DNA from: an uncultured archaeon
Lineage (GTDB): Archaea; Thermoplasmatota; Thermoplasmata; Thermoplasmatales; Thermoplasmataceae
DNA length: 64,000 nt
Assembly (NCBI GenBank): GCA_000965745.1
Contig: CP009479.1
Location: forward strand, 640,001 to 704,000
Direction: 5' to 3'
Made by a program: the position numbers and the translations under genes. Below are positions 3,183-30,880 of the stretch, piece by piece (the stretch's first letter is position 1; each line of letters starts with the position of its first letter). Below the pieces are notes generated by a model. That model saw only the letters and a program-made list of their open reading frames with translations, was not told where the DNA came from and did no database searches.

Positions 3183-3542
3183 TTATTTCCTGCCCTCTTT
3201 TCCAACATACCTGACCTCGAAGGTAAGGCAGCCACTATCTGTAATCCATGGCCCATGGGGCATTCCAGGAGGCCTGCAGGCAAACATTCCCTTCGTGAAG
3301 GTCTTGTTCAATGTCAGGTCGTGAATGTACCCTTCAAGGATGTATACCTCTTCCCAGACATCGTGCCTCAGTATGCCGTTGGGGCTGGTATCAGTCCCGG
3401 GCTCAAACTTCAGGATCCTAGAGACAACGCCGCTCTCATGATCGCGTGCAAGTATTCTTTCGTAGAGCCCTTCTGCCCTTCCTTCACACTTCGTCCATTC
3501 TACTGTTGTACTGTCATAAAATTCGTACTCCGGTTTTGACAT
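3183..3542 (-). CDS. ChrR-like cupin domain protein
   Basis: HDVWEEVYILEG and RPPGMPHGPW cupin motifs; coupled to the hpaB-like gene. Confidence 0.8.
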   Translation of the reverse strand: MSKPEYEFYDSTTVEWTKCEGRAEGLYERILARDHESGVVSRILKFEPGTDTSPNGILRHDVWEEVYILEGYIHDLTLNKTFTKGMFACRPPGMPHGPWITDSGCLTFEVRYVGKEGRK

Positions 3543-5014
3543 CAGTTTTTCCCTCCTTTTTCACTCGCCCCGGTTGAGAAGTCATAGTTGTGCATGAAGC
3601 TGTCCACCATTTCTACTGGTTCGTCATACCCATAATTTCTGAACGAGTAGTTCTTTGCCACAAAAGGCGCTCCTGCGTAAAACATCTCATACTGATGGTG
3701 CCTTCCCGCGAATTCTGATCCTATCACATCCCATGCAAGCCTGAACAGTTTGATTCTTTCCTCAGATGTTGCGTTAGAGGACCTTATGTAAGTGGATATG
3801 TCATCCCTGGTCTCAGGGTTGATCATTTCATGGATGCTGGAAGGGAGCTGAAGGACTCCTGCCCCACACAACTCTCTCAGAATATGGAGGGCTCTTGGAT
3901 AGAGGTCGGCCTGCATTCCCATTGCACCGTACAGGAACCTCGGGTTGGGTGAAATCACTCCAGCGGGGCGCTCCATAGCTGTGGACTCTGACGCCTGCAC
4001 CATGCCTTCAACAATGGATGACAGTGATGCAAGCTCACCCAGTTTTTCGACGACTCCCGGTATCTTGTCTATGCCATTCATGGCTGTCACCTTTCTGGCA
4101 ATCCCTATCAGGAACTTCATTTTCACTGACAGCCGAATCTGGGCCTGATTGTTTCCGAGAACGTGGGCAGCAGTTTCGAAAAACTGGGCCTGAAGCAGTG
4201 AAATGTCCCGGTAAACAAACACATTCTCCCAAGGCACAAAGACATCGTCAAAAACAAGGAAGGCGTCAGACTCATCGAATCTCGTTGACATTGGATAGTC
4301 AAACGTTCCAGACTTATCGACCGCGTATGGTTTTCTGCAGTACAGCTTCAGCCCCTTTGCGTTTACTGGCAGAGCAAAGGAAAGGGCATAGTCTTCGTCT
4401 CCGGGCTTCAACGGTGGTATGCAGCTGACAAAAATATAGTCAGATACCGCTGATCCTGTTCCAAGCATCTGGGCTCCCCTGATCACAATGCCTTTGTCAT
4501 TCTCTGAAAGCACTCCTACCTGGGTAAACCTGTTTTCCTGATCCTGGGCTGTTTTGCTCCTGTCATTTTGCGGAGGTATGATCGCATAGGTGACGTAAAG
4601 GTCCTCAGATACAACCTTGTGGTAGAAATTTATGACATTATCTGCAAATTCAGGTTTTCCTCTTGCGAAAACTTCCGGTTTTCCTGCGAATCCAGCAAGA
4701 AAACCTCCCACATGGTCAGGGCTGCGCCCAACAAAACCTGCTGTGAGCTTGGCCCATTTGTAGATTGCCTCGTGCCTGTCTGCCTGGTCCTGCTTGGTTC
4801 TAGGGATAATGAAGACATTGTTGCCCTCTGAACCCCACTCGGTTTTGAAAATCATGCCATTATCAGGATCAGAGCTGAAATCATACATCCCGGACAGTGT
4901 CTCTATTATCCCTTTGAATGCAGGATGCTCTCTAACGTCTGATACTTCAATCCCGTTGATGTATACTTTTCGTCCATCATTCAGCGAATCAACATACTCT
5001 TTTCCAGTTCTCAT
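3542..5014 (-). CDS. Two-component FADH2-dependent monooxygenase, oxygenase subunit (4-hydroxyphenylacetate 3-hydroxylase HpaB family)
   Basis: MRTGKEYVDSLNDGRKVYING N-terminus; GRSPDH; FDYPMSTRFDESDA; GSEFAGRHHQYEMFYAG. Confidence 0.9.
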   Translation of the reverse strand: MRTGKEYVDSLNDGRKVYINGIEVSDVREHPAFKGIIETLSGMYDFSSDPDNGMIFKTEWGSEGNNVFIIPRTKQDQADRHEAIYKWAKLTAGFVGRSPDHVGGFLAGFAGKPEVFARGKPEFADNVINFYHKVVSEDLYVTYAIIPPQNDRSKTAQDQENRFTQVGVLSENDKGIVIRGAQMLGTGSAVSDYIFVSCIPPLKPGDEDYALSFALPVNAKGLKLYCRKPYAVDKSGTFDYPMSTRFDESDAFLVFDDVFVPWENVFVYRDISLLQAQFFETAAHVLGNNQAQIRLSVKMKFLIGIARKVTAMNGIDKIPGVVEKLGELASLSSIVEGMVQASESTAMERPAGVISPNPRFLYGAMGMQADLYPRALHILRELCGAGVLQLPSSIHEMINPETRDDISTYIRSSNATSEERIKLFRLAWDVIGSEFAGRHHQYEMFYAGAPFVAKNYSFRNYGYDEPVEMVDSFMHNYDFSTGASEKGGKN

Positions 5015-5020
5015 AAACCA

Positions 5021-5689
5021 TCAATCCCCGATTTTTACAGTGTAGCTGTGATGAAGAACGGCTCCGGTCGAAGGCACTCTCAGCTCTACCTCAAATTCAT
5101 CTCCATACACAAAATTGCCAGCAAGCAGCGGCAACGTGCCCAGAAACAGGACTGAATTCTCAAGGCTCACGTCAACTGTTGATTTCAGCTCTTTAAGGAG
5201 ATCCGGTATGTCCATGATCTGAGAAACACTCCCTTCCTGGTATTTCACCATTCCCGAGCCCGTTTTTACCCAGCTCCTTATCTCGATGCTATCCCACACG
5301 CTCTTCAGGCTGCCGTATTCCATCACGTCACAGGATATGGGTTTCTGGCAGGAAGACTTGCTCTCAGCTATGCTCTCCTTCTCTACATCTCTCGCTGTAT
5401 GGTCGCTTCCTACACCGATGAACAGCTCACCTTTCACATTTATGAGCACAGGCTCAACCTCACCTGAAGATTCCCTGCTGCTTACAGTGATTCTATCAAA
5501 GGTTGAAACAAGATCAGGATTGAGCACAAAGAATGCCGGGACCCTTTCCGGGACTGGGACCCCTATGTCGGCAAGCTCCTTTATGTGCCGTTCCGTGCTA
5601 GCCCTGTCTTTTCCGGTGAAACCGGCTATGATAAGTGATGACGGCTTGAAATCAAGTGTTCTGTCCCTTCCCATGACATTTAGTTTCAT
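5021..5689 (-). CDS. DUF2848 family protein (FAH-like fold)
   Basis: AGFTGKD..HIKELADIGVP, SSGEVE and GSDHTARDVE motifs. Confidence 0.75.
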   Translation of the reverse strand: MKLNVMGRDRTLDFKPSSLIIAGFTGKDRASTERHIKELADIGVPVPERVPAFFVLNPDLVSTFDRITVSSRESSGEVEPVLINVKGELFIGVGSDHTARDVEKESIAESKSSCQKPISCDVMEYGSLKSVWDSIEIRSWVKTGSGMVKYQEGSVSQIMDIPDLLKELKSTVDVSLENSVLFLGTLPLLAGNFVYGDEFEVELRVPSTGAVLHHSYTVKIGD

Positions 5690-6008
5690 TGAGGCTCAAT
5701 CAGCTGATTATATTTAAAATTCCTATGCACCCTTACTGTAGGGCTAATCTGCCTATTCCGGCAAGCTCTGGCAATGTTAATATATGTGCGTTGAAGTAAG
5801 AAAAATTGTGGGAGTGAAAGCTGGATACATGAAAGAAACAGTGATAATTTCATACCGGAATAATGTCAACTGCATCTCGTCGGGTTACTTTTTATTATAA
5901 TGGCAAAAGTTCCAAACCGCCAGGAAAATGCCTAAAAAACTATTTTTTTGAAGCCTTGCAGCATCTTCGATCTTAAAATTTTAATAGGTATATTATGACG
6001 GCAACTAT

Positions 6009-6016
6009 TTTATATA
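6009..6016 (+). promoter_or_regulatory. Archaeal TATA box of a probably leaderless MFS gene
   Basis: TTTATATA ending 20 bp upstream of ATG 6036; no RBS in between. Confidence 0.5.
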
Positions 6017-6035
6017 TCCTACCTGTTCGCGACGC

Positions 6036-7379
6036 ATGGGAAGTCAAGACGCAATCTCTAACGAGAAATTTACGTCGACTAACGGAGCCCAGGTATACGT
6101 GTCGTTTTTCTCTTACACGTTTGATATACTGAGCTTCATTAGTATAATCTTCGTCATCCCGTACATCCACAACCTGATCTATCCTTCGCCCAATCTGGGG
6201 GTATCATTGCTGGTGACATGGGGTGGCGTAGCAGCAGGGTCTTTGACTAGACCGCTAGGTGCGGCAATATTCGGACCCTCAGGAGACAACAGAGGAAGAA
6301 AGAGAATGCTGTATATCACGATCACAGGATCAGCGATATTCACCGCAGCTCTCGCTGGACTACCGACATACGCACAGGTTGGTATATTATCGCCTGTCAT
6401 ATTTGTCGCGCTGAGGCTTATAGCCGGATTCTTCATTGGCGGTCTGATAGCTGGAGGACTTGTGTTCTCGGCTGAGAACCTGCCAGAGCGTTTCAGGGGT
6501 CTAATGACCGGTTTCGCTGAGTCCGGTGGAAGCTGGGCACATGTTATCGGATCAGCATGGCTGCTGATGACCACAATTGCATTCACCGGCGCGGCATACG
6601 CTGCATTCGGATGGAGAGTAATGTTCCTTGTAGCCTTACTGCCCTTAGTAGTGGTTATTCCTGTTCTATACAAGATACCGGAATCAGAGATATTTGCCAT
6701 ATCCAAGAAGAAGGGTAAAGTAAAGGGCAAAGCACTGAGAAGACTCTTCACAACACCAAAGGTAAGGGGAGTATTTGCTCTCTCACTGATATCATCCATC
6801 GGTCTTCTCGGATTTGACAACCTTACTGAGAACACTTTCCCAACTTTCCTGAAACAGGTTAATAACCTGGTGCCGAGCCACCTTGCATTCATTGTGCTCG
6901 TAGGGGCGGCATTCGGTGTTATAGGATCTGTTCTTGGAGGTGCCCTCTCGCAGAAGATAGGCAGGAAGCCGCTTGCAATCGGTGGTGGAGTTGTCTTGAT
7001 GATTATCAGTGTCCTCTTCGTTTACCTTGGAAATATACCGGGAACATTGGTGGACAGGATAATTCTGACACTTATACCGTTCTACTTCTTTGCCTCAATA
7101 AGCAAAGCAGACCTGAGCCTGTATCTTAACGAGGCCTTCCCCACGGATCTTAGGGCCAGTGGACTTGGTCTAAACTGGAATATAGGATACGGTCTGGCAG
7201 GCATATGGCCTTTGATTATCAGTGGTTTCATAGCAGTCTACGGCATAACTGTATTCCCGCTTGCCCAGGCTGTTGCAGTAGGAATCCTTGCTGCTTTCTA
7301 CACAGTCTCTTCAATATTCATGAAAGAGACCAAGGGAAACATCAGCTCGGAAAGATCGCAACTGGAAGCAGAGGCCTGA
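6036..7379 (+). CDS. MFS transporter (metabolite:H+ symporter type)
   Basis: RPLGAAIFG..GDNRGRK motif A, AENLPERFRG, about 12 TM helices. Confidence 0.9.
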   Translation: MGSQDAISNEKFTSTNGAQVYVSFFSYTFDILSFISIIFVIPYIHNLIYPSPNLGVSLLVTWGGVAAGSLTRPLGAAIFGPSGDNRGRKRMLYITITGSAIFTAALAGLPTYAQVGILSPVIFVALRLIAGFFIGGLIAGGLVFSAENLPERFRGLMTGFAESGGSWAHVIGSAWLLMTTIAFTGAAYAAFGWRVMFLVALLPLVVVIPVLYKIPESEIFAISKKKGKVKGKALRRLFTTPKVRGVFALSLISSIGLLGFDNLTENTFPTFLKQVNNLVPSHLAFIVLVGAAFGVIGSVLGGALSQKIGRKPLAIGGGVVLMIISVLFVYLGNIPGTLVDRIILTLIPFYFFASISKADLSLYLNEAFPTDLRASGLGLNWNIGYGLAGIWPLIISGFIAVYGITVFPLAQAVAVGILAAFYTVSSIFMKETKGNISSERSQLEAEA

Positions 7380-7474: not shown

Positions 7475-7969
7475 TTATTGGGTAAGGCCAACTGTGCTCT
7501 TGAACCCTCTTTTGTGGTAAACAAGCGCATGCTCATCGTTCAGCACCGTTGCTTTCTCCACTTCTCCGACAAAGAGGAAATGATCAGCGATCTCCTCCTC
7601 CTTGTAAAGAGAGCATTCTATAGAGCCAAGTGCATCGTCAAGAACTGGGACGCCATTGCCGTTCAGGTGATATTTGATGCCTGAAAACTTGTCATCGCTC
7701 TTGTCGTTTGCAAAAATTTTGGCCTCATCTTCCTGCCCTTCCCTCAGAATATTTACCACAAACTTCTTTGTCTGCCTGACGGCCTTCGCTGTCCTGCTCT
7801 CAGTCGTTATAAAAAGGCCTATAAGGGGTGGATTAAGAGAGACAGATGTGAATGAATTCATTGTCCCTCCACAGTATTCTCCATCCAACAGGGATGTTAC
7901 TACTGTCACTCCCGTGGGGTATCTTCTAAGAACCTCTTTAAGATCTTCTCCCGGTTTGTTGTCAGTCAT
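7475..7969 (-). CDS. Flavin reductase (HpaC-like), likely partner of the monooxygenase
   Basis: PTGVTVVT, TMNSFTSVSLNPP, DHFLFVGEV. Confidence 0.9.
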   Translation of the reverse strand: MTDNKPGEDLKEVLRRYPTGVTVVTSLLDGEYCGGTMNSFTSVSLNPPLIGLFITTESRTAKAVRQTKKFVVNILREGQEDEAKIFANDKSDDKFSGIKYHLNGNGVPVLDDALGSIECSLYKEEEIADHFLFVGEVEKATVLNDEHALVYHKRGFKSTVGLTQ

Positions 7970-8144: not shown

Positions 8145-8861
8145 TCAGTAAACTGTGCCCTTTTTCTCCAGCCTGGTCACGAAGTATCCCCAGTCTATGC
8201 CGCTGACTTCTTCTCTTATGTCCTTGGTGTCAGTTCTTCTTACCCTGTCATGGTCATATTCAACGATAGAGCCAAGAGCCGAAGCCATATACTGCTTCTT
8301 TGCAGCCCTCTCGAGAGAGGCTGCGGTTATCACAACATCTTCTATGCTTTCACCAACAACGAAAGCTCCATGCCCCCGGTGAAGGACAGCTTTGCTTTTC
8401 CCGAGTGCTTGGGCCATCCTGTACCCCATTTCTTTAGTGTTCACGAACAGCGGGAGCCCATCAAATACAGGCAAGCCGTCTATGAACAGGAATGAATCCC
8501 TAGTTGACATCTGGAGTTTGCTGTCTGTTATTTCAAGAAGGTTTGCATAGAAGGAATGCATATGCAATGCTGCCTTCACATCCCTCCTCACTTGAAAAAC
8601 CTCACTGTAGAAATAGAACTCATGCATTGATTCCGGGTAACTCCCCTCGAGGACATTTCCATCATAATCTATTGTAACTATATCTGAGGCAGTGCAGTCT
8701 GCTATTGACCTCTGAAAATCATGGAGGTGGCCAGGAATCAGTATCTTTCCTTCTTCAAGCTTGTAAGCTACATGACCTCTTCCAAGCTCTGTCAGGTTCT
8801 CGTTGACAATTATTCTGTTGGCCATAGCCAGCTTCTGTCTCAATCCTTCTTCAACAGGCAT
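8145..8861 (-). CDS. Class II aldolase/adducin family metalloenzyme (possible decarboxylase)
   Basis: GRGHVA, RRDVKAALHMHS, HRGHGAFVVG. Confidence 0.8.
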   Translation of the reverse strand: MPVEEGLRQKLAMANRIIVNENLTELGRGHVAYKLEEGKILIPGHLHDFQRSIADCTASDIVTIDYDGNVLEGSYPESMHEFYFYSEVFQVRRDVKAALHMHSFYANLLEITDSKLQMSTRDSFLFIDGLPVFDGLPLFVNTKEMGYRMAQALGKSKAVLHRGHGAFVVGESIEDVVITAASLERAAKKQYMASALGSIVEYDHDRVRRTDTKDIREEVSGIDWGYFVTRLEKKGTVY

Positions 8862-8976
8862 AGATTCAAAGTAAGAATCTCTCTATTAAATACTTGTCCA
8901 ACGAAATCCCCGTTTATGTACAAATGCAGCTAAACGTTCTCTGTAAAAAATGGAAAAAAAAAATCGTTCAAACGCT

Positions 8977-9768
8977 TCAGAGCGCTTTCTTTATCTCTGG
9001 AAGAAGAATCTTTACCAGCTCTTCAGGGTCCTCGATCATTGGATAGTGTCCGAAACCTGGAAGGGCCATATATCTTGCATTCCTGATCTGGTTGGCAGTC
9101 TCTGAAGCCATCCTTTCCGTGACTACCGGGTCTTCTTCGCCTCTTATGAGAAGAACATCCGTGTCGATTTTCCCGAGTTCTGCAGTAATGTCAAAATTGT
9201 TCCAGGCAAGCAGATCAGTCACGTAAATATCCCTGTTGTTGGAGCTTCTTATCCAGAGGAGTTCCTCAATTGCCTGTTTGCTTGATCTTGTCCCGCAGAA
9301 GTCGAAAGCTCTCTCCACATCGCCAGGGACAGTCTTCAGTATGGTTTCCTCTTCAAACGTATGTGTTTTTCCGGCCCCTTCAATAACAGCGGCAAGCTTC
9401 ACCTTCTTTCCAAGCAGTCTTGCGAGCTGCAGCGAGATCACAGCCCCCACTGAGCAGCCAACAACTATGACCTGCTTGTAACCCTGGCTCTCTATGAATT
9501 TTGCAACAGTGTTTGTGTAGTAAGAAACATTTACACGTGTCTTTCTCCATCCTGCCCATGGCCAGGATTTGCCGTGTCCAGGGAGATCGACAATGATTGA
9601 TGTAAATTTCTCTGGCAGAAGATCTACGAAATGTTTCCAGATCCTCCCGTCTGTCCCGGCAGTATGTATAAAAATAACAGGCGTTCCTTTACCGGATGTT
9701 TCATAATAAAACCTCAGGCCGTTAATGTCGGCATAGTGCCCCTCGCTCATTGGTTTCGATCTTGCCAA
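8977..9768 (-). CDS. Alpha/beta hydrolase
   Basis: HTAG oxyanion loop, DLPGHGKS, GCSVG nucleophile, EDPV, GHYP. Confidence 0.88.
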   Translation of the reverse strand: MARSKPMSEGHYADINGLRFYYETSGKGTPVIFIHTAGTDGRIWKHFVDLLPEKFTSIIVDLPGHGKSWPWAGWRKTRVNVSYYTNTVAKFIESQGYKQVIVVGCSVGAVISLQLARLLGKKVKLAAVIEGAGKTHTFEEETILKTVPGDVERAFDFCGTRSSKQAIEELLWIRSSNNRDIYVTDLLAWNNFDITAELGKIDTDVLLIRGEEDPVVTERMASETANQIRNARYMALPGFGHYPMIEDPEELVKILLPEIKKAL

Positions 9769-9854
9769 GATATATAGAAGTTATCCAAGAAATGCTCCAT
9801 AATAGGCTATATTAACGTGTTTCTAATCAAATATTTTATATACACCGTGTTTTT

Positions 9855-11159
9855 ATGCCAACGCTTATGGAATCCAATATCAGCTACACTAGAAACGAGA
9901 GATATGGGGCACTTGGTGGCATTCTTTTTGGTCACTTCAGTGACGGTTATGATCTGGTTCTGATCAGTTATCTGTTCTTCCCCATGGCTCACGAATTCCA
10001 TACAGGTATTCCCCAGATTGCGCTTGCTTTGACAATAAGCCTCGTGTTTTCTGCGCTCGGGGGAGTTGTGTTTGGTTGGTTTGCCGACAGGTTTGGAAGG
10101 AAAAAGGGACTTATACTTTCTCTCGCAATATTTGGTCTGTCAACTCTTTTGACAGCAGGCATAAATTCCCTTTGGCAGTTGTATCTGCTCCGTGCAATAG
10201 AGGGAATAGGAATTGGCGGTGAATGGGGAATAGGATTCGCCCAGATTACGGAAGTATGGTCGCCTAAGACAAGGGCAACAGGAGGGGGTATCCTTCAAGC
10301 TGTCTTCATTATAGGATCTATAACAGGAGCATTTACTGCTGGATACACCCTTCAGGCTTACGGCTTTTCTCTTGGATGGAGATATGCATTCGTAATAGCT
10401 GGAGTAGTGGCTCTGATAGGTATAGCTGTTGTACAGCTTATAATGCCTGAGTCAAAATTCTGGAAGGATTACGACAGCAAGAGAAGGAAGGGAGAACTTC
10501 CGAAGGACTATGACATCAGGTCCCCGCTCATTCAGATTTTTTCAAAGAAGGTCAGAAGATGGACACTCTTCTCACTCCTGATAGGTGGCGCCAACCTGTT
10601 CATATACTTCTCATATGCGAGCTTCATGCCAACTCTTCTTGGAACTCTCAGCGTACCAATCGCCGATTACACTCTTATACTGGTCTTGGGTCAGGCGATA
10701 GCAGTTCCATTCTACTGGTTGAATGGATACTTTGCTGACAGATTCGGGAGGAAATCCTCAGCCATTGGTTACGGAATAATCTACATAATTGCGGTAGTAT
10801 CATTCATGGGGGCAAATATATTGAAGACCCCATACCTCATGCTAGTGGCTTTCCCGTTGTTCTATACATACACTTTTGTCTCAATAGGGCAGGGAGTATC
10901 GGGAGAGTACGGTGTCTGGTACAGCGAACATTTCCCAACAAAGATGAGATCAACCGCAACCAATTTCGGTTATATGGTTGGAAGGGGTTTTGCTGGGGGT
11001 CTTGCACCAATAGTCATTCCCCTGATAGCCGCGAGCCTGGGAGGGTTGAGCCATCTTGGAATAGCGATGTCAATTGCAATGCTTGTAGGGGTAATTGTCC
11101 AGTTTATTGGCTTCTTCGGCCTCAAGGAAACAAAGGGAACAGAGGTTACAACCCTCTAA
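9855..11159 (+). CDS. MFS carboxylate-type transporter (NanT/Jen-like)
   Basis: GWFADRFGRK, GIGGEWG, EHFPTKMRSTA; clear paralog of 28003..29304. Confidence 0.9.
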   Translation: MPTLMESNISYTRNERYGALGGILFGHFSDGYDLVLISYLFFPMAHEFHTGIPQIALALTISLVFSALGGVVFGWFADRFGRKKGLILSLAIFGLSTLLTAGINSLWQLYLLRAIEGIGIGGEWGIGFAQITEVWSPKTRATGGGILQAVFIIGSITGAFTAGYTLQAYGFSLGWRYAFVIAGVVALIGIAVVQLIMPESKFWKDYDSKRRKGELPKDYDIRSPLIQIFSKKVRRWTLFSLLIGGANLFIYFSYASFMPTLLGTLSVPIADYTLILVLGQAIAVPFYWLNGYFADRFGRKSSAIGYGIIYIIAVVSFMGANILKTPYLMLVAFPLFYTYTFVSIGQGVSGEYGVWYSEHFPTKMRSTATNFGYMVGRGFAGGLAPIVIPLIAASLGGLSHLGIAMSIAMLVGVIVQFIGFFGLKETKGTEVTTL

Positions 11160-11170
11160 TTTTTTTATTT
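11160..11170 (+). terminator. Oligo-T archaeal terminator
   Basis: T-run immediately after the TAA of the MFS gene. Confidence 0.5.
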
Positions 11171-12390: not shown

Positions 12391-12409
12391 GTGAAAAATT
12401 GGAGAATGA

Positions 12410-22600: not shown

Positions 22601-23572
22601 ATGAAAAACATCGACATCCATTCACACATGTTGCATTCTTCTTCGATAGAACAACTGGGAGGGGAGATAAACCAGATTGAAAACAGTCCTCTTTACGCCA
22701 TAAATGTGCTGGGAAAGAAAGTGGCTCCTATGCCCAAGGGGTTTTTTGACACTGATGCACGAATCAGCGAAATAGCTGAAATGGGAATAGAAGGGCAGAT
22801 TATATCACCTACCCACCACCTCTTCATGTATGACAAGGACGCATCATCTGCAGCCAAATCAGCGAGAATCCAGAATGAGGGAATCAGCAGGGTCTGTTCA
22901 GAACACAGTGGCAGGTTTGCGGGAAATGCAACACTCCCGATGCAGGACGCGAAGCACGCCCTGGATGAGCTTGAATATGCATATTCCAAGCTCGAAATGA
23001 AAGGCATAGAGATAGGCACAAACATAAACGGCAGGAACCTGGATGATGAGAGCCTCTTCCCGGTTTACGAAAGAGCGCAGGAACTTGGAATGCCAATATT
23101 TGTCCACCCCAACGATTTCATGGCAAAGGAGAGGCTATCAAAATACTACATGGGGATAGTTGTGGGAACACTTGCTGAGACCACTGTGGCAGTGAGCAGC
23201 CTTCTTCTGGGAAACGTATTCGGGAAGTTCCAGAAATTGAAGATGGTATTCTGCCATGGCGGAGGCGCAATACCCTACCAGATCGGAAGGCTCCAGCATG
23301 CAGTGGACATACGTGAGGAGCTCAAGGACGCGAATGTGGACATATCAAAAGGTATCAGGAACATACTCTTTGACTCTGTAGTGTTCACACCAGAGGCACT
23401 TGATTTCCTGATAAAGGAAACTGGAGAAGACAACGTTGTTCTCGGTACGGATTATCCGTTCAACATGGGCAACTGGAATTCAGCAAAGGACCTTCAGAAC
23501 CTTTCAACAATCAGTGAAACAACAAGAAACAAGGTTATGCTTGAAAACACGAAGAAACTGTACGGACTCTGA
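22601..23572 (+). CDS. Amidohydrolase_2 family decarboxylase (ACMSD-like)
   Basis: IDIHSH, IFVHP, CHGGGAIP, GTDYPF. Confidence 0.88.
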   Translation: MKNIDIHSHMLHSSSIEQLGGEINQIENSPLYAINVLGKKVAPMPKGFFDTDARISEIAEMGIEGQIISPTHHLFMYDKDASSAAKSARIQNEGISRVCSEHSGRFAGNATLPMQDAKHALDELEYAYSKLEMKGIEIGTNINGRNLDDESLFPVYERAQELGMPIFVHPNDFMAKERLSKYYMGIVVGTLAETTVAVSSLLLGNVFGKFQKLKMVFCHGGGAIPYQIGRLQHAVDIREELKDANVDISKGIRNILFDSVVFTPEALDFLIKETGEDNVVLGTDYPFNMGNWNSAKDLQNLSTISETTRNKVMLENTKKLYGL

Positions 23573-23591
23573 TCCGTTTTCCATTTTTTAA

Positions 23592-23862
23592 CAAAATTGA
23601 GCGGAAAATCCCCTTCCGAAAGGGAGGGGATGAAAGCGAAATCTTTTCCTATTTTCCAGAAATAACACGTGGCTCACCAGCAGACAGAATGGAAGAAGGG
23701 TCGGATAACGTGTAGCTCCATGCGTTCCTGTGTCCGTAAAGTCGAATGGATTAGTGTGGAGGGCAAAGTACCCCCGGGCCGGAGGGAATTCATGCCTGCG
23801 GAGGTTGCGCTGGTAACCGTGGAAGCAGGAAGCCCCTTTCGAAGGATAGGGGAGGAGGTCAC
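23592..23862 (+). mobile_element. 271-bp non-autonomous IS200/IS605-family element, copy 2
   Basis: Same TTTAA|CAAAATTGAGCG left junction, same hairpins and TCAC end as copy 1; constant offset of 4770 bp; 3' flank differs immediately after TCAC. Confidence 0.85.
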
Positions 23863-23922
23863 AAAAAGAATGGCCTGGTCAATTAAATAAATATAAAAAT
23901 ATAATAAACGTGGTACTAAACT

Positions 23923-24402
23923 TCACTTCTTCTGGGCAAAGTACTTTCTCTGAGCGTCCTGTACTGCGTCAACGATCTGCTGATACCCGGTGCACATACA
24001 GTAATTCCCATGCAGCTTTTCCCTGATCTCCTCTCTTGTCATCTCCTCGTTGTTCCTGATGAGATAGTTTGTCATCATAAGGAAACCCGATGTGCAGTAC
24101 CCGCACTGAAGGGCGAACTTCTCCCTGAAGGACTCCTGCTCAATGCTCAGCTCTCCGTTCGGCCCTTCAAGCCCTTCTACCGTCTTTAGGTTTGCACCCT
24201 GAGCCTGGACAGCCAGTATCTGGCAGGACTTCACGGGTTTCCCATCCCACTGGATAGTGCATGCTCCGCAGTGGCCAGTGTCACAACCTATGTGCGTCCC
24301 CTTGAGTTTCAATACATCCCGTATGAAATGCACGAGCAGCATCCTCGGCTCAGTCTCACCCGAATATTCCTTTCCATTTATTGTAAGATTCACAGTAACC
24401 AT
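23923..24402 (-). CDS. Molybdenum hydroxylase small [2Fe-2S] subunit (CoxS/CutS-like)
   Basis: GCDTGHCGACT, QCGYCTSG, NYCMCTGY. Confidence 0.93.
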   Translation of the reverse strand: MVTVNLTINGKEYSGETEPRMLLVHFIRDVLKLKGTHIGCDTGHCGACTIQWDGKPVKSCQILAVQAQGANLKTVEGLEGPNGELSIEQESFREKFALQCGYCTSGFLMMTNYLIRNNEEMTREEIREKLHGNYCMCTGYQQIVDAVQDAQRKYFAQKK

Positions 24403-24414
24403 TGTTATTCCTCC

Positions 24415-25266
24415 TTACTCAATTAACTCCTTTATCACTCTTGCTAGCATCATTTTCAGCGAGTATTTCCTGTACTCCTCTCCTCCATGGATATCCGAAA
24501 TCGGGGTGAGAGCGTCAACAGTCTCTGATATGGAAGTTTGGAGGTCCACTGAATCTTTCTTCTTCCCCTTAAGGGCAGACTCAAGGCTCTTTAACCTCTC
24601 AGGCCCATCCGTAAGTGCTCCAGCTGCAATTCTAAGTTCTTCTATGCTTCCGTCCGAAGCAGTTCTGGCAATAGCTGCCACCGAAACTACTGCAAAGTCA
24701 GCCTTTCTCCGCGCATACTTCTCCACATGGTATTGATCTGTGCTCTTCGGGACTATTATCTCCACAGCTATCTCATCTTCCCTTGCATCAGTCTCGTAGG
24801 GCCCTTTGATGAAATCTTCTATCCTCACGGTTCTCCTTCCTTCTTTGGAAAGAAGGACAATGCTTGCTTCAAGAACGAACATAGTGGGTGGATAGTCTGC
24901 AGAGGGGTCTGCTTCACATATGCTTCCACCAATTGTCCCCCTGTTTCTTATCTGTATATCTCCTATGTTTTCAGCCGTGGAAGCAAGAATTGGCGCATTT
25001 TCCCTGATAAGCCCGTTCTCTATTACTTCAAAATGGGTCACCATTGCGCCGATTCTGAGATTCCCGCCTTCATCAAGCTTCACCTGCTTCAGTTCTGGAA
25101 TAGCTCCAAGATCTATCAGGCAGGCAGGCTCATAAAAACGGAGCTTGAGCATAGGCATCAGGCTCTGCCCTCCAGCTATGACTTTTGGCTCTTCAACGGT
25201 CTTCATCAATTCTAGGGCCTCGTCGAGAGTTTTTGGCCTGTAGTACTCGAATTCAGTGGGATACAT
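24415..25266 (-). CDS. Molybdenum hydroxylase FAD subunit (CoxM/CutM-like)
   Basis: AGGQSLMPML, IRNRGTIGGS, ADPSAD. Confidence 0.93.
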   Translation of the reverse strand: MYPTEFEYYRPKTLDEALELMKTVEEPKVIAGGQSLMPMLKLRFYEPACLIDLGAIPELKQVKLDEGGNLRIGAMVTHFEVIENGLIRENAPILASTAENIGDIQIRNRGTIGGSICEADPSADYPPTMFVLEASIVLLSKEGRRTVRIEDFIKGPYETDAREDEIAVEIIVPKSTDQYHVEKYARRKADFAVVSVAAIARTASDGSIEELRIAAGALTDGPERLKSLESALKGKKKDSVDLQTSISETVDALTPISDIHGGEEYRKYSLKMMLARVIKELIE

Positions 25267-27743
25267 CAGTTTGCCCCTCCTGTGAGTTTCTTGTATTCAT
25301 CAGTATCCTTGACCATCTCCCAAAGCTTTTCAGGCTTTATTGGAAGCTCGCTTATCTTAACGCCAAATGGCTTAAGTGCATCTTCAACTGCTCCTGCTAT
25401 GGCCCCCAGGGATGTTATTGCCCCTCCCTCGCCTACGGCTTTAGTTCCGAATACGGTGTTTGGTGCCGGGGACTCCATTTCATCAAGCTTTATCTCAGGA
25501 GACTCCATTGCAGTTGGCTTCATGTATTCTGCGAATGTAAGCGACAGGTTATTGCCCTGTTCGTCGAAGAGAAACTCTTCATAGAGTGCACCACCTATTC
25601 CGCTTACGGTTGAACCTATGGCCATGCCGTCCACGATTCCGGGGTTTATGACTTTGCCTGCGTCATGAACTATGGAGTAATCGAGAATCTTCACGTTCCA
25701 GTTCTCGGGTGAAACTTCTACAAGGCATATGTGGGTCGAATTTGAGTGTGTCAGCTGAACGTTAAAATCATCTCTGTGGAATGGCTTGGCAGTCTTGTTC
25801 ACGTAAGATGCCGTTATCTTAAGTCCAGGGTCCTGATCCTTGGGGAATGAGAGCAATCTGCCGTAGGAGATCTTTGCGAGTTCCTTGACACCAACCAGCT
25901 TCTCTGAATCCGATTTCCTGAAAACATGTCCTTCTGCTATATCCAGGTCTTCCACATTCTCCTTCTTTAGCGATGCTGCAATCGCAAGGATCTTCTCCTT
26001 CAGCAGTGTGGCCGCCTTCATCACTGCTCCAAGGTAAACATCATTGAACGCGTTTGAGTAGGTCCCTGCGTATGTCAGATGCCCATGCACGGAGTCATAC
26101 CAGCCATCTACAATGATGTCCTCAGGCTCAAGGCCAAACACATCTGATACTACCTGCGCAATGGTGGTTACATGTCCTGTTCCAATCTCAGGGCCGTTCA
26201 TGTTAACCTTCACGGTTCCGTCGGCTACCATTTCAACTGTTGCCATCTGGCCAGCACCGTTGTAGTCAGGGTCTCCCTCCTTTGAAAGGAAGTAATATCC
26301 AAGGTTGGAAGTACCGGGTTCTATGCCGCAGGCGATTCCAATTCCCACGTATCTGCCTTCTTTCCTGAGCTTTTCCTGCAGCTTCAGCTTTTCATGGTAT
26401 TCTGAAAAGTTGAGCGCTCTTCTGAAATTCTCGGGATAGTTTCCGCTCTCGTATACTTCACCTGAAAATGTGGTATATGGCATTTTCTCGGCAGGAACAA
26501 AATTCTTCTCCCTGATAATTGTCCTGTCGATGCCAAGGGCGTCCGCACTCTTGTCCATCATTCTTTCAAGGGCGAAGGACATGAATGGCTTCCCGACTCC
26601 TCTGTCCTGAACTATAGGTGGATCATTGGTGGCGACAGAATGGTACGAGTAGTCGAGGTTTCTTATTTCGTAAACGCCACACATGTTTGCAAACTTGATC
26701 AGCGAATAAAGAGCAGCAACATATGGCCAGTTTCCATCTGCCTGCCAGTCTGTAAGGCGTGCTCCGAGTATCTTTCCGTCTTTTCTGAGGGCAAATTCAG
26801 CATCCATAAACCCTCTCGGCCTGTGGAATGCGTACAGGCTTTCTGTCCTGGTCTGAACCCACTTTACGGGTTTGCCCGTCAGCTTGCTAAGGAGCGAGAC
26901 CAGTGCAACGTACTGCCAGATAGCGAGCTTGTTGCCAAATCCTCCTCCCACCTGCGGCACTATCAGCCTGATCTTCGACTGCGGAATCTTGATCGTGCTT
27001 TCTATGGACCCTACCGTTCTTCCAGGCTGCTGATCGCTCGCATAGGCGAGAAGCTCGTCTCTAGTCTGGTCATAAAACGCGCTGGTCACAAAGGTCTCAA
27101 GCGGTGTTGATGCGTACCTGTGGATCCGTATCCTGTCCTTAACTATCTTATCTGCCTCCTTGAAAGCCTTTTCCGTATCCCCGAACTTGAAGTGATCTTC
27201 TATGAGCTGGTTGGTCCCTATCTCAGGATAGATGAGCTCAGATTCTTTTTTCATGGCATCTTCTATTGTAGCTACCACAGGAAGCGGGTCATATTCAACA
27301 TCAATGAGGTCGATCGCGTCCGCTGCAATGTACTTCGTCTTGGCTACAACGGCAACAACAGGCTCTCCCATGTACCTTACTTTGTCCACTGCGAGTATGT
27401 AGTGTGATGTTGGTGATTTCGTTGCAGCTCTTGACTTCATAGGGTTTGTGATCTTTTTCACTTCTTCCCCTGTCAGAACATATATCACGCCGGGTAGCTC
27501 AAGAGCCTTGGAAATGTCGATGTTTTTTATCTTTGCATGCGCAAACGGGCTGAAATGGAAAGCAGCGTAATGCTGGTCGGCGAACTCAATATCGTCAGCA
27601 TACCCTCCTTTTCCTCTAATAATTTTCAGGTCCTCAATGCGCGGAACAGCTTTTCCTACACTGCCTGACTTTTTGCCATCTTCTGAATAAACGAGAGTCT
27701 GGGCAGACGAATTTGAACCTTGCATATTGGCTGAAGGTAACAC
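25266..27743 (-). CDS. Molybdenum hydroxylase large molybdopterin subunit (xanthine oxidase family; not aerobic CODH)
   Basis: VGGGFGNK, GTGH, GTKAVGEGG (catalytic Glu); active-site loop QDRGVG rather than AYxCSFR. Confidence 0.9.
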   Translation of the reverse strand: MLPSANMQGSNSSAQTLVYSEDGKKSGSVGKAVPRIEDLKIIRGKGGYADDIEFADQHYAAFHFSPFAHAKIKNIDISKALELPGVIYVLTGEEVKKITNPMKSRAATKSPTSHYILAVDKVRYMGEPVVAVVAKTKYIAADAIDLIDVEYDPLPVVATIEDAMKKESELIYPEIGTNQLIEDHFKFGDTEKAFKEADKIVKDRIRIHRYASTPLETFVTSAFYDQTRDELLAYASDQQPGRTVGSIESTIKIPQSKIRLIVPQVGGGFGNKLAIWQYVALVSLLSKLTGKPVKWVQTRTESLYAFHRPRGFMDAEFALRKDGKILGARLTDWQADGNWPYVAALYSLIKFANMCGVYEIRNLDYSYHSVATNDPPIVQDRGVGKPFMSFALERMMDKSADALGIDRTIIREKNFVPAEKMPYTTFSGEVYESGNYPENFRRALNFSEYHEKLKLQEKLRKEGRYVGIGIACGIEPGTSNLGYYFLSKEGDPDYNGAGQMATVEMVADGTVKVNMNGPEIGTGHVTTIAQVVSDVFGLEPEDIIVDGWYDSVHGHLTYAGTYSNAFNDVYLGAVMKAATLLKEKILAIAASLKKENVEDLDIAEGHVFRKSDSEKLVGVKELAKISYGRLLSFPKDQDPGLKITASYVNKTAKPFHRDDFNVQLTHSNSTHICLVEVSPENWNVKILDYSIVHDAGKVINPGIVDGMAIGSTVSGIGGALYEEFLFDEQGNNLSLTFAEYMKPTAMESPEIKLDEMESPAPNTVFGTKAVGEGGAITSLGAIAGAVEDALKPFGVKISELPIKPEKLWEMVKDTDEYKKLTGGAN

Positions 27744-28002
27744 CCCTAATCTTTAAAATCTTTCGATGTAAGCGATTACGGAATCAGTATTAAAACGCGT
27801 CTGTGTCACAATTTCATAGATGCTATAACTGACCCTATCGTGCTACGAACTGACATTCGGGGCAGGATGTATATCGATTACAGAATTCGAATTTTACATA
27901 AGAATGGGTGAATACATAAGGCATTGTTTAAATAATTGTTTGTGAGAATGAATATTTTCTAGAACAAATGAATAAATACTGTCAATCTTTGACTCATGCT
28001 AG

Positions 28003-29304
28003 ATGGAGACAGACATTTCCTATACAAAGGCTGAGAAAAGCAAGACTTATGTCGGGGCAACACTGGGTTATCTGTTTGATGGGTACAACCTACTTCTTAC
28101 CACTTTTCTGGTTGTAACTCTAGCAACATATTTCGGTGTGACCCCTAAGGCGATAGTCTTTGCAATAACCCTCGCCCTTGTCGGATCCGTCATCGGAGGA
28201 ATTTTTTTCGGATGGCTGGCAGACAGAATAGGGCGGAGGACTACACTGCTCGTAACGATAGTTCTCTTCGGAATAGCTACAATCATTACCGGAACAAGTC
28301 GGACCCTCGACGAGTTCTATCTGCTCCAGTTCATAGCTGGAATCGGAGTAGGGGGAGAATGGGGCGTCGGCTTCTCGATGCTGAACGAAGCCTGGGGGAC
28401 AAAGTCGAGAGGTCTTGCGGGAGGTTTCCTGCAGGCAATGTTCCCTGCCGGCGGTCTGCTAGGGGCTGTCACAGCAGGAGTCATGCTGGGAGCCTATGGA
28501 GGAGATCTTGGTTGGAGATATTCCTATTATTTCGTGGGTATACTCTCCTTGGTTTTACTGGCCTTCAGGTTCTTCGTCCCGGAATCAAAAGTATGGAAGG
28601 CACAGGTTAAGGCCAAATTGGAAGGAAAGAACGCGAATGAGCTTTTGATGAAATCTCCACTTTCAGAGATATTCTCGAAGGAAACACTTAGATGGACCAT
28701 TTTCGGAACTCTGATGGTGTTCGGTTTCATGTTCTTCTTTTACTCCGGTCAGGTATTCTACCCCACGTTTTTCAAAACTGTTGGCCAGGTTCCGGATGTG
28801 AGCGTGACCCTGATTGTTACAATCGGGTCAGTTCTGGGAATCATTGCAGAAGTTGTCATCGGTGGAAGCAACGACCTCCTTGGAAGGAAAAAATCGGGGA
28901 TCATATTTGGTGTGATCTCGATTATTGTTGTCTTCCCATTCCTGTATACAGCAATGAACCCGACCATTTTCAGCGGAATAGGGTCTTACCCCTCATTCTA
29001 CACATACGGTCTTCTGTACTTCTTCCAGGCAAGCTATGCTGCACTGTTTGGTGTATGGCTAGGTGAGCATTATCCAACGAGGATGCGTGCAACGGGCTCA
29101 AACTTCTGCTATATGGTCGGAAGAGGTTTCGGCGGCGGTCTTGCACCTATCATAGTACCCATACTCGCGGTCAGCGTGGGAGGTCTTGGAGTGAGCATGT
29201 CCATAGGAATGATAATTGGTGCTGTAGTGATGACCATTGGTGCCCTTGGCCTCAAGGAAACAAAGGGCGTGAAGATAACAGAAGTCGACGCGGCCAGCGC
29301 ATAA
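28003..29304 (+). CDS. MFS carboxylate-type transporter
   Basis: GWLADRIGRR, GVGGEWG, EHYPTRMRATG; paralog of 9855..11159. Confidence 0.9.
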   Translation: METDISYTKAEKSKTYVGATLGYLFDGYNLLLTTFLVVTLATYFGVTPKAIVFAITLALVGSVIGGIFFGWLADRIGRRTTLLVTIVLFGIATIITGTSRTLDEFYLLQFIAGIGVGGEWGVGFSMLNEAWGTKSRGLAGGFLQAMFPAGGLLGAVTAGVMLGAYGGDLGWRYSYYFVGILSLVLLAFRFFVPESKVWKAQVKAKLEGKNANELLMKSPLSEIFSKETLRWTIFGTLMVFGFMFFFYSGQVFYPTFFKTVGQVPDVSVTLIVTIGSVLGIIAEVVIGGSNDLLGRKKSGIIFGVISIIVVFPFLYTAMNPTIFSGIGSYPSFYTYGLLYFFQASYAALFGVWLGEHYPTRMRATGSNFCYMVGRGFGGGLAPIIVPILAVSVGGLGVSMSIGMIIGAVVMTIGALGLKETKGVKITEVDAASA

Positions 29305-29416
29305 GAATCATTTACTAACCAACAAATTTTTTTCCCTCTCATTATATTGAAATAAGCTTTTGAGGAATACGCGCTAAAAAACTAATTATCTGTTAGTATT
29401 TTCAGATCGGTTTCTG

Positions 29417-30880
29417 ATGGTGCAATGGGCAGATTTAAGGGAATGGATAGAACTCGCTGACAAACTTGGTGAACTTAAGGTTCTGAAGGGAGTGGACCCA
29501 AAACTGGAATTGTCTGCAATAGCTCAGATCAACGCAAGGAACCAGGGGCCAGCTCTCCTTTTCGACGATGTTAAAGGATATGAAAACACAGGATTCAGGG
29601 TGCTTAGTAACTCAGTATCAAACCTCAATCTTTTCAATCTTACTTTCGGAGGCAAAACCGGCCTCTCTCTAAAAGAGACTATAGAGGGCCTGATGGGGAA
29701 ACCGAATGAGTGGCAGCTCAATAGCAAGGATTATCAGGTCAAGTATGTAGAAAATGGTCCGGTAATGGAGAATGTTGAGGAAGGAGAGGGTGTTGATCTC
29801 ACTAAATTTCCTACCCCAATTTGGCATGACAAGGACGGGGGGCCATTTATTGGCACTGGTGTCGCTGTGATAACCAGGGACCCTGAGACAGGGGTAATAA
29901 ATTCCGGGTCATACAGGGCGCAGTTGCATGAAAAAAACATTGTCGGCATAAACGCAGAAAGAGGAAAACACGGAGCTTTCCACAGGGACAAATACTACAG
30001 CAGGGATGAGCCAATGCCCGTTGTCATGGTTTTCGGCCCGGATCCTCTGATGTACATTCTGGCAGGAAGTGAAATTCCAACAGGGATATCGGAGCTCGAG
30101 TATCAGGGAGCCGTCCAGGGCAAGAGTATTACAGCGGTGAAAGGAAAGTATACTAGGCTACCCATACCATCAAATGCTGAAATTGTGATAGAAGGTTTCA
30201 CTTACCCCGGAAAAACGAAACTGGAAGGGCCGCACGGTGAATGGACTGGATATTACGCCAGTGATGCCAAAGAGAAACCGTACGTCGAGGTAAAGGCTGT
30301 TTATTACAGAAACAACCCTATAATCCTTGGGGCAGCAATGTCAAAGGGAAGCTACAATGATCACGCTTTCTGGAGAAGCATCATGAGGTCTGCGCTGGTG
30401 TATGATGAGATGGTGAAAAACGGAATCCAGGGGATAAAGGGGGTGTACTCGCCTCCTTTTGGAGTTGGCAGGCAATTTATCACCGTATCAATCAAGCAGT
30501 CCTATCCGGGCCACGCTACAGAAGCAGGATATCTCGCCTCACAGACAAGGAGTGCCGCCTATATGGGCAAATGGGTCGTGGTTGTTGACGATGACGTGAA
30601 TCCGTACGATATGGACGATGTCCTATGGGCCATGTGCAGCAGGGCTGACCCATCCGAAACAGGCATAATCAGAAAGGCTTGGGCGAGCGGCGTTGATCCT
30701 CTGAGGCCAAAGGATGTCCCCGCATCCAAACACACAAATTCCAGGGGAATAATATTCGCGGTTGTTCCCTATGAAAGGATGGACAACTTCTCTGAAACCT
30801 GCATTGCATCTGATGACACAAGGAGGGAAACCTTCGAAAAGTGGTCAGAAGAACTGAATGGCAGATGGGACAAATATTGA
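29417..30880 (+). CDS. UbiD-family prFMN-dependent (de)carboxylase 4 (canonical motifs)
   Basis: DGGPFIGT, NSGSYR, EGPHGEWTGYY, VVDDDVNP. Confidence 0.92.
   Translation: MVQWADLREWIELADKLGELKVLKGVDPKLELSAIAQINARNQGPALLFDDVKGYENTGFRVLSNSVSNLNLFNLTFGGKTGLSLKETIEGLMGKPNEWQLNSKDYQVKYVENGPVMENVEEGEGVDLTKFPTPIWHDKDGGPFIGTGVAVITRDPETGVINSGSYRAQLHEKNIVGINAERGKHGAFHRDKYYSRDEPMPVVMVFGPDPLMYILAGSEIPTGISELEYQGAVQGKSITAVKGKYTRLPIPSNAEIVIEGFTYPGKTKLEGPHGEWTGYYASDAKEKPYVEVKAVYYRNNPIILGAAMSKGSYNDHAFWRSIMRSALVYDEMVKNGIQGIKGVYSPPFGVGRQFITVSIKQSYPGHATEAGYLASQTRSAAYMGKWVVVVDDDVNPYDMDDVLWAMCSRADPSETGIIRKAWASGVDPLRPKDVPASKHTNSRGIIFAVVPYERMDNFSETCIASDDTRRETFEKWSEELNGRWDKY

Follow-up and report, generated by a model that had tools for sequence, protein, structure and literature searches.

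We analyzed a window of 64,000 nucleotides (positions 640,001 to 704,000 of contig CP009479.1) from the genome of an uncultured acidophilic archaeon of the family Thermoplasmataceae and found that region 3183–30880 of this window is an optional block of 28 kb with about 24 genes. Judging from its gene families, this block is probably an accessory catabolic island for the uptake and degradation of aromatic carboxylic acids or amides, most likely N-heteroaromatic ones. The combination of symporters, three amidase types, up to six decarboxylase types, two ring hydroxylases, two metal cupins and further hydrolases fits a catabolic funnel. The leaning towards nitrogen compounds is based on the relatives of the Mo hydroxylase subunit, which include hydroxylases of the quinoline and nicotine pathways, on the relationship of two UbiD proteins (UbiD2 and UbiD4) to the decarboxylase PhdA, and on additional C-N hydrolases in a version of the cluster from Nitrososphaerota. 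The island itself has three genes of C-N hydrolase type, and the Nitrososphaerota version carries Amidohydro_1 and CN_hydrolase genes besides.

The listing of open reading frames (ORFs) and Pfam scans recovered, in the same places, all gene families that an initial annotation made from the sequence alone had described in this region. Its counts of four UbiD genes, one UbiX, two cupins, two alpha/beta hydrolases and three transporters of the major facilitator superfamily (MFS) agreed with the Pfam results, and the HpaB oxygenase with a flavin reductase, the three-subunit Mo hydroxylase, two isochorismatase-fold proteins, an Amidohydro_2 protein, a class II aldolase-fold protein and a cyclase were all found again by Pfam. 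Missing from the earlier list were a DUF2848 gene (5021–5689, minus strand), a gene for a PNPOx-like protein of 171 aa (19106–19621, plus strand) and two copies of a 278-nt repeat.

The ends of the island were revealed by comparison with two congeneric genomes, G084 (95% complete) and G126 (88% complete), in which the locus reads G3P dehydrogenase, flavin reductase, UbiX, beta-propeller protein, unk173 and SHMT. Since this order lacks the island, its ends coincide with those proposed initially. The island consists of three blocks (3183–7379, 8145–19621 and 20255–30880) around two backbone genes, flavin reductase and UbiX. On the left it is flanked by the backbone gene of a FAD oxidoreductase resembling G3P dehydrogenase (1714–3084, minus strand; Pfam DAO), which scores under the cut-offs of the NCBIfam G3P dehydrogenase models, and on the right by that of the beta-propeller protein (30896–32293, minus strand).

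This single locus differs in its presence among close relatives. An orthologue of the third UbiD gene, UbiD3, was detected in 10 genomes, belonging to 4 of 36 genera, in a sample of 150 other genomes of the order. All eight genomes with an HpaB orthologue (8/150) are among these 10, and none of the remaining 140 has one (Fisher P = 9e-12, a value that is overstated, as related genomes are not independent). UbiD3, HpaB, a small cupin of 147 aa and the ACMSD-like Amidohydro_2 gene are all absent from G084 and G126 and all present in a further congener, G097; a search for the cupin and the ACMSD-like gene in G099 and G063 likewise found neither. Thus, four markers from four transcription units are gained and lost together. 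The clustering of the UbiD genes is also not random: the complete genome (one contig of 2.23 Mb) holds eight UbiD paralogues, and eight points placed at random would have four within 18.5 kb with a probability of 1.5e-4.

To follow the fate of the island genes in relatives, all proteins of the window were compared by tblastn with the fetched loci. The relatives of UbiD3 are metagenome-assembled genomes (MAGs) of Thermoplasmatales with 76–95% identity, in line with the archaeal origin assumed at the outset. About 20 families were found clustered, in shuffled order and orientation, in seven loci from three Thermoplasmatales genera (L009, L010, L012 from Thermoplasmatales archaeon AK, L013, L015, L016 from UBA447, and L019), and in L013 and L016 the gene set is packed within about 21 kb. 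Several sub-modules recur: flavin reductase–DUF2848–HpaB–Cupin_7; the isochorismatase-fold gene Iso1 beside UbiD1, an adjacency seen at every locus examined; UbiD3 and the PNPOx-like gene facing UbiX, the cyclase and the 147-aa cupin; Amidohydro_2 facing the Mo hydroxylase; and an MFS gene adjoining UbiD4. Alpha/beta hydrolase 1 is kept in the cluster of other genera, and of the related loci searched, L009, from the closest relative, was the only one with a match to alpha/beta hydrolase 2. It should be mentioned that in a Thermoplasmataceae MAG (L019:13121-15289) a gene for a catalase-peroxidase-like protein of 722 aa with two peroxidase-domain matches lies between UbiX and the cyclase gene.

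Most of the set was also found within about 35 kb of a 179-kb contig labelled Thaumarchaeota (Nitrososphaerota; overlapping loci L039 and L020). This contig has 14 of the families of the island, most of them 45–67% identical to the window proteins: UbiD4 (67%), cyclase (67%), UbiD3 (66%), UbiD1 (64%), Mo large subunit (62%), MFS1 (61%), 147-aa cupin (61%), class II aldolase-fold enzyme (51%), Amidohydro_2 (50%), Cupin_7 (45%), UbiX (39%), DUF2848 (33%), PNPOx-like protein (29%) and Iso1 (27%). In L020 a luciferase-like monooxygenase was found nearby, together with the Amidohydro_1 enzyme and the CN_hydrolase mentioned above. On a contig of Ca. Caldarchaeum (L040) a core set was found together, namely Amidohydro_2, the cyclase, Mo subunits, the two cupins and DUF2848. 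The identities across phyla, together with the patchy distribution in Thermoplasmatales, point to lateral transfer of the unit between Thermoplasmatota and Nitrososphaerota. That the genes have stayed together despite repeated reshuffling, and in two phyla, speaks for a single functional unit, and both this synteny and the all-or-none presence bear out the coherence that had been claimed for the region.

The initial annotation saw no housekeeping gene in the block, which does not hold for UbiX (19599–20165, minus strand; NCBIfam NF004685, 238 bits vs. a cut-off of 188). It is the only copy in the genome, and of the 151 genomes of the order, 143 have UbiX, among them all 74 of high quality; as a single-copy core gene, it makes the block not free of housekeeping functions. 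Besides the flavin reductase gene of this locus (7475–7969, minus strand; Pfam Flavin_Reduct), the genome has one more gene of this kind. Both backbone genes are kept at the locus in the island-less G084 and G126, where they adjoin each other. The reductase could serve HpaB, UbiX or both; because it adjoins UbiX even without the island, it may supply reduced flavin mononucleotide for the synthesis of prenylated flavin mononucleotide (prFMN). In the island-less congeners the neighbouring flavin reductase and UbiX genes lie at L030:8861-10193 and L031:5656-6984.

No compositional sign of foreign origin was found: GC content varies from 0.43 to 0.51 over the window with no step at the island ends. 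No integrase-type domain was seen when the island and the sequence directly beside it were scanned with Pfam. The two copies of the 278-nt mini-element, located between UbiD3 and the PNPOx-like gene (18815–19092) and at 23585–23862, are 96% identical, and the genome contains nine full-length copies. Copy 1 is absent from the same site in the 95%-identical relative L009 and has therefore been inserted recently.

The four UbiD proteins all match PF01977 and PF20696, and the match to PF20695 is significant in three of them and weak in UbiD1. They form two pairs, UbiD2/UbiD4 (37% identical) and UbiD1/UbiD3 (52% identical). UbiD2 (15580–17037, minus strand) and its sister UbiD4 (29417–30880, plus strand) are of the canonical prFMN decarboxylase type, with intact NxGxYR and EGPxGE motifs and the full Arg-Glu-Glu network, which we take to be defined by these motifs as in Fdc1 of A. 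niger. In the alignment UbiD1 (12410–14017, minus strand) has Ser/Gln/Glu and UbiD3 (17199–18800, plus strand) has Ser/Gly/Glu in place of Arg/Glu/Glu; this altered Ser/Gln(Gly)/Glu pattern, with the second Glu retained, was revealed in all 21 full-length archaeal orthologues aligned. The Asn/His/Glu residues of the metal/phosphate site (Mn site) are present in all four proteins, and UbiD1 and UbiD3 have a C-terminal extension of about 50 aa. Thus, the description of the island as built around four UbiD paralogues is right as to the number of genes and overstated as to function, since two of them are without the catalytic Arg and the first Glu.

Characterized relatives were ranked by PDB bit score. 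The best solved relative of both canonical proteins was 7PDA (305 bits for UbiD2 and 257 bits for UbiD4, the next structures scoring 166 and 153), which is the phenazine-1-carboxylate decarboxylase PhdA (PMC10850782). No curated PhdA model was among the matches of UbiD2 and UbiD4, so that their likeness to PhdA rests on the PDB scores. For UbiD1 the best solved relative was HmfF (6H6X, E 3e-45), but as UbiD1 is without the catalytic residues this kinship gives no support for a furandicarboxylate activity. In the FastTree phylogeny UbiD1, UbiD3 and UbiD4 each have a sister from Nitrososphaerota or Aigarchaeota, indicating that the UbiD duplications predate the spread between phyla.

Variant UbiD genes were also found outside archaea. 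In Binatia and delta-proteobacterial MAGs (L022:8685-11866 and L024:9989-13170) a UbiD gene with the Ser/Gly/Asp variant abuts a canonical Arg/Glu/Glu paralogue; since the two belong to the same subfamily and abut directly, the arrangement suggests a heteromeric UbiD in which a catalytic subunit is combined with an altered one. The surroundings of these UbiD3-like genes contain only ABC transporters and periplasmic binding proteins and give no clue to the substrate. Two more UbiD paralogues of the genome studied (G000:C1 97972-99642 and 924903-926564), 40% identical to each other, have an insertion of about 100 aa and are without the metal-site His.

The PNPOx-like gene always lies between UbiD3 and UbiX. 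Its product had no Pfam match and an Atlas feature score of 0.96 to clusters of the PNPOx family; it looks like a PNPOx-type split barrel, which we regard as a lead only. The literature search returned nothing relevant on a link between prFMN and PNPOx or on UbiD in Thermoplasmatales.

HpaB (3542–5014, minus strand; Pfam HpaB_N and HpaB) is the oxygenase subunit of a two-component flavin monooxygenase. Its best solved relative is Thermus HpaB (2YYG, E 2e-76), and it belongs to the Pfam family without reaching the curated equivalog models (TIGR02309, 333 bits vs. a cut-off of 480; TIGR02310, 301 vs. 885). The Mo hydroxylase (23923–27743, minus strand) has, according to Pfam, the large Mo subunit (25266–27743), the FAD subunit (24415–25266) and the 2x[2Fe-2S] subunit (23923–24402) and falls into the xanthine dehydrogenase family. 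In the large subunit the Glu of the GEGG motif is kept (position 772) and the active-site loop has the unusual sequence QDRGVG, the loop of form II carbon monoxide dehydrogenase presumably being AYRGAGR. Its nearest solved relatives are CoxL, quinoline 2-oxidoreductase and 6-hydroxypseudooxynicotine dehydrogenase. In total, the genome has eight Mo large subunits and three Amidohydro_2 genes. Mo hydroxylase subunits accompanied by Amidohydro_2, cyclase, isochorismatase-fold or alpha/beta hydrolase genes were also observed at about 337-341, 971-996, 1657-1666 and 1709-1711 kb of the contig (G000:C1); apparently, the organism possesses a number of analogous catabolic modules.

Two more candidate decarboxylases are encoded in the island. 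The best solved relative of the Amidohydro_2 protein (22601–23572, plus strand) is human ACMSD (188 bits, E 3e-54), compared with 60–72 bits to gamma-resorcylate decarboxylases, and it is 36–39% identical to eukaryote-type ACMSD homologues. The Zn ligands and the catalytic His are invariant (H7, H9, H169, H219 and D284). Of the two arginines that we assume to bind the substrate in ACMSD, Arg47 and Arg235 (human numbering), the second is kept as R230, while in the column of the first the six archaeal orthologues uniformly have Pro and the five ACMSD-type sequences Arg; near this column a Trp of the ACMSD type is replaced by Ile or Val in the archaeal proteins. Hence the earlier ACMSD-like label is correct for the nearest solved relative, but without Arg47 the enzyme is not ACMSD, nor is it PicC by its nearest relatives. 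The class II aldolase-fold protein (8145–8861, minus strand; Pfam Aldolase_II) had a sub-cut-off NCBIfam match to 3,4-dihydroxyphthalate decarboxylase among others, and its PDB matches include NovR and Mlr6791 (2Z7B); on these matches it is predicted to group with members of decarboxylase type.

The putative hydrolases are diverse. Iso1 (11746–12390, plus strand) and Iso2 (14582–15334, plus strand; start codon uncertain) are isochorismatase-fold cysteine amidohydrolases by Pfam, both with the Asp-Lys-Cys triad, and RutB and biuret hydrolases come nearest to them. Alpha/beta hydrolase 1 (8977–9768, minus strand; Pfam Abhydrolase_1/6) had PcaD-like matches below the cut-off; alpha/beta hydrolase 2 (Pfam) lies at 21673–22485 on the same strand. 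The cyclase-family metal hydrolase (Pfam Cyclase; 20255–21082, minus strand, with the start revised to 21082) belongs to the family of kynurenine formamidase and isatin hydrolase; it matches PDB 5IBZ, and matches to KynB and isatin hydrolase itself are weak. The DUF2848 protein (Pfam PF11010) has conserved SGE-x-E and GSDHT-x-R motifs, and its Atlas neighbours are named hydratases, one cluster having PF01557 on 10% of its members. No PDB sequence matched it, a single-sequence AlphaFold model was uninformative (predicted local distance difference test score, pLDDT, 38) and the literature search returned nothing relevant on DUF2848; it is probably a divergent FAH fold.

Both small cupins have a conserved His-Glu-His set. 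In the Cupin_7 protein (119 aa; 3183–3542, minus strand; Pfam E 1.3e-7) the three positions are invariant in seven orthologues, and in the 147-aa cupin (21087–21530, minus strand; Pfam Cupin_2) H77, E84 and H118 are invariant in 30 homologues. The family of the latter is very narrow, with 39 clusters among 5.8 billion proteins. All named matches are archaeal and mostly from acidophiles, and include Sulfodiicoccus acidiphilus and Thermoplasmatales archaeon B_DKE. The AlphaFold2 model of this cupin (pLDDT 92) retrieved only generic small cupins in the fold search, with the hydroquinone dioxygenase PnpCD ranked low, a result of no diagnostic value.

The three MFS transporters are encoded on the plus strand. 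MFS1 (6036–7379; Pfam MFS_1) resembles metabolite/H+ symporters, MFS2 (9855–11159) aromatic acid/H+ symporters, and MFS3 (28003–29304) sialate and aromatic acid/H+ symporters. The best NCBIfam models, TIGR00883 for MFS1 and TIGR00895 for MFS2, were matched below their cut-offs; MFS2 and MFS3 are 41% identical. Altogether the island contains about ten transcription units in both orientations. Two operons were recognized from overlapping or abutting genes in the ORF listing: DUF2848, HpaB and Cupin_7, in the order of transcription, with a gap of 6 nt between the first two and the start of Cupin_7 overlapping the HpaB stop by 1 nt; and the 147-aa cupin, which overlaps the long cyclase ORF, followed by the cyclase and UbiX. 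The gaps at 11159–11746 and 14017–14582 (about 570–590 bp) contain no ORF of at least 60 aa and no match to the repeat.

From these families we infer the following order of reactions. The substrates would enter by carboxylate/H+ symport through the three MFS transporters, and amides would be hydrolysed by the cysteine amidases Iso1 and Iso2. Ring carboxyl groups may then be removed by the canonical UbiD2 and UbiD4 with prFMN from UbiX, and perhaps also by the non-canonical UbiD1/UbiD3 pair with the PNPOx-like protein as a helper. The Mo hydroxylase would hydroxylate the ring beside the nitrogen, and HpaB with the flavin reductase would add a second hydroxyl group. The resulting hydroxy-acids could be decarboxylated by the ACMSD-like Zn enzyme and the class II aldolase-fold enzyme, and one or both of the cupins would open the ring. 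The ring-opened products would finally be hydrolysed by the cyclase-type amidohydrolase, the alpha/beta hydrolases and the FAH-like DUF2848 protein. A bolder version, in which the island encodes a complete archaeal N-heteroaromatic route of the pyridine, quinoline or phenazine type, the cupin and the cyclase replace NicX and NicD, UbiD1/UbiD3 with their PNPOx-like partner perform non-classic prFMN chemistry or depend on a separate protein to mature the cofactor, and the island as a whole was transferred between Thermoplasmatota and Nitrososphaerota, is possible but doubtful.

The logic of the proposed reactions appears to parallel the bacterial nicotinate and picolinate routes, with several steps assigned to unrelated protein families. 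In the nic cluster of Pseudomonas putida KT2440 (NicAB, NicC, NicX, NicD, NicF and NicE) Mo hydroxylation is followed by flavin monooxygenation, ring cleavage to an N-formyl amide, deformylation and hydrolysis of the amide, the last by an enzyme of isochorismatase fold; NicC, a single-component flavoprotein, catalyses a decarboxylation as well. The island agrees with it at the level of folds only, and the differences are the same as from the pic cluster. Folds of the deformylase and the maleamate amidohydrolase are present with the triad; PcaD, RutB and biuret hydrolase are closest to these proteins, and not any named NicD or NicF. The pic cluster of Alcaligenes faecalis JQ135 comprises the Mo dehydrogenase PicA, the monooxygenase PicB, the Amidohydro_2 decarboxylase PicC, the dioxygenase PicD, the deformylase PicE, the amidohydrolase PicF and the isomerase PicG (10.1101/530550, 10.1101/457895). 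PicC is 45% identical to gamma-RSD, and gamma-resorcylate and 2,3-dihydroxybenzoate decarboxylases are its nearest relatives (10.1101/457895).

The features shared with pic are a Mo hydroxylase, a monooxygenase, a Zn-dependent Amidohydro_2 decarboxylase, ring opening, and an alpha/beta hydrolase with an isochorismatase-fold amidase. However, the monooxygenase of the island is HpaB-type and that of pic four-component, the Amidohydro_2 protein is nearest to ACMSD and PicC to gamma-resorcylate decarboxylase, and the island has no isomerase that we could see. Beyond the pic set, the island adds four UbiDs, UbiX, the class II aldolase fold, the cyclase, two small cupins and DUF2848. As a matter of orthology, we therefore rejected a genuine nic or pic pathway: no NicX- or PicD-type gene exists in the genome, the kinship of the Amidohydro_2 protein is wrong for PicC and the monooxygenase is of another type. 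Of the funnel for heterocyclic acids proposed initially, the leaning towards carboxylates and nitrogen compounds is reasonable in view of the acid/H+ symporter-like MFS proteins and the C-N hydrolases; the analogy to nic and pic extends to reaction logic and not to orthology.

Other known systems were compared in the same way. Like the PhdA/PhdB system of Mycolicibacterium fortuitum (7PDA), UbiD2 and UbiD4 keep Arg-Glu-Glu and lie near UbiX, and PhdA is by far their best solved relative; but the similarity is moderate, no equivalog model is reached and no other gene of a phenazine pathway was recognizable. With HmfF/HmfG and HmfABC (6H6V, 6H6X) the island shares the closeness of UbiD1 to HmfF, the three-subunit Mo enzyme and UbiX. 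A furan (hmf) route was nevertheless rejected: the HmfF-like UbiD1 and UbiD3 are without the Arg and the first Glu, the CoA ligase or hydrolase of the furoate route is not in the island, and no CoA-ligase family is among its Pfam matches. The Amidohydro_2 protein shares the Zn ligands, catalytic His and second Arg with ACMSD (4IGN, 2WM1, 2HBV) of the kynurenine and 2-nitrobenzoate pathways, but has Pro for Arg47. As no TDO or 3-HAO above the cut-off was found in the complete genome and Arg47 is missing, a kynurenine/3-hydroxyanthranilate pathway was also rejected. In agreement with the initial annotation, the cluster does not map one-to-one onto a described pathway, the equivalog cut-offs being unreached and the literature search being without a match.

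Several observations weigh against an island for N-heteroaromatic acids. None of its proteins reached an NCBIfam equivalog cut-off, the only models passed being generic UbiD and UbiX subfamily ones, and the substrate is not readable from the sequence, as the initial annotation rightly stated. UbiD1 and UbiD3 are without the catalytic Arg and the first Glu and may have no decarboxylase activity. The best NCBIfam matches of the Mo enzyme, all below the cut-off, are models of glyceraldehyde dehydrogenase and CO dehydrogenase, so that it could oxidise an aldehyde. By fold the cupins are generic, and a dioxygenase role is putative for both. NicX, which we take to belong to the Pfam family Peptidase_M29, has no counterpart, as no PF02073 match was found in the complete genome; neither a recognizable maleate isomerase nor a transcription factor or other regulator was seen among the island genes. 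HpaB was not found in three Nitrososphaerota/Aigarchaeota genomes; its absence from the Nitrososphaerota version implies that not every module is obligatory.

Other explanations of the same gene set were considered. An island of this type could act on homocyclic substrates, i.e., hydroxybenzoates, phthalates or benzene polycarboxylates from lignin, humic matter or coal, with nitrogen playing no part. The match of the class II aldolase-fold enzyme to 3,4-dihydroxyphthalate decarboxylase fits this explanation, as do the resorcylate, dihydroxybenzoate and carboxyvanillate decarboxylases of the Amidohydro_2 family, the use of phenols by HpaB enzymes, the resemblance of MFS2 and MFS3 to aromatic acid/H+ symporters and the six possible decarboxylases, suited to poly-carboxylated rings. 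However, two Asp-Lys-Cys amidases and the cyclase-type hydrolase would then be without an obvious role, and the Nitrososphaerota version adds C-N hydrolases. N-heterocycles are the substrates of the solved enzymes nearest to UbiD2, UbiD4 and the Mo subunit, and Pfam scans revealed no usual intradiol or extradiol dioxygenase among the island genes; we regard purely homocyclic substrates as rather unlikely. It is improbable that the island is a device against acid stress, detoxifying protonated aromatic acids, which at low pH enter through the membrane and acidify the cytoplasm, by proton-consuming decarboxylation and additional modification, with no carbon feed. The genes of decarboxylase type are unusually many, the hosts and relatives stem from acidic sites and the island has no clear lower pathway to central metabolites, but ring hydroxylases, putative ring-opening cupins and four hydrolases exceed the needs of detoxification, and the symporter-like MFS proteins indicate uptake.

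The island might also be a hot spot of unrelated accessory modules that have gathered around UbiX and share no pathway. The numerous transcription units in both orientations, the module order differing between genomes, the Nitrososphaerota version without HpaB, the similar groupings of Mo hydroxylase, Amidohydro_2 and cyclase elsewhere in the genome and the mobile mini-elements inside the island would all be expected of such a hot spot. The common gain and loss of markers from four units, and the persistence of about 20 families through reshuffling in three genera and of 14 in another phylum, make it very improbable. Finally, UbiD/UbiX and HpaB-type enzymes occur in quinone and natural-product synthesis, and NovR-like and BagN/FevL-like matches were seen, but a cluster making a quinone, a cofactor or a secondary metabolite, in which tailoring enzymes would join them, is hardly credible: no scaffold-forming enzyme (prenyltransferase, polyketide synthase, non-ribosomal peptide synthetase or chorismate enzyme) is present, hydrolases, the Mo hydroxylase and uptake-type transporters dominate, and the distribution is that of accessory genes.

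The proposed catabolic island for aromatic, probably N-heteroaromatic, acids or amides belongs with the aromatic and N-heterocycle catabolic clusters. To our knowledge, no aromatic or heteroaromatic catabolic pathway has been characterized in Thermoplasmatales. The literature search found no description of such a cluster in this order, for which, as far as that search shows, it is newly described. It gives a defined, testable set of about 24 genes with sharp ends, and a single genus includes both natural carriers and non-carriers of it. Ca. Scheffleriplasma hospitalis B_DKE is in pure culture (PMC8975820); it has the cupin and an ACMSD-like gene under consecutive locus tags and so offers an experimental entry point. 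The island reveals a clearly conserved UbiD subfamily that is without two of three catalytic residues and always stands by a PNPOx-like protein and UbiX. The ACMSD-like decarboxylase with an altered substrate pocket and the very narrow cupin family are each worth study alone, and the two PhdA-like UbiDs of thermoacidophile lineages may serve as robust (de)carboxylases. More broadly, the data point to a large metabolic island having been transferred between archaea of two phyla, both at home in the same hot and acidic environments.

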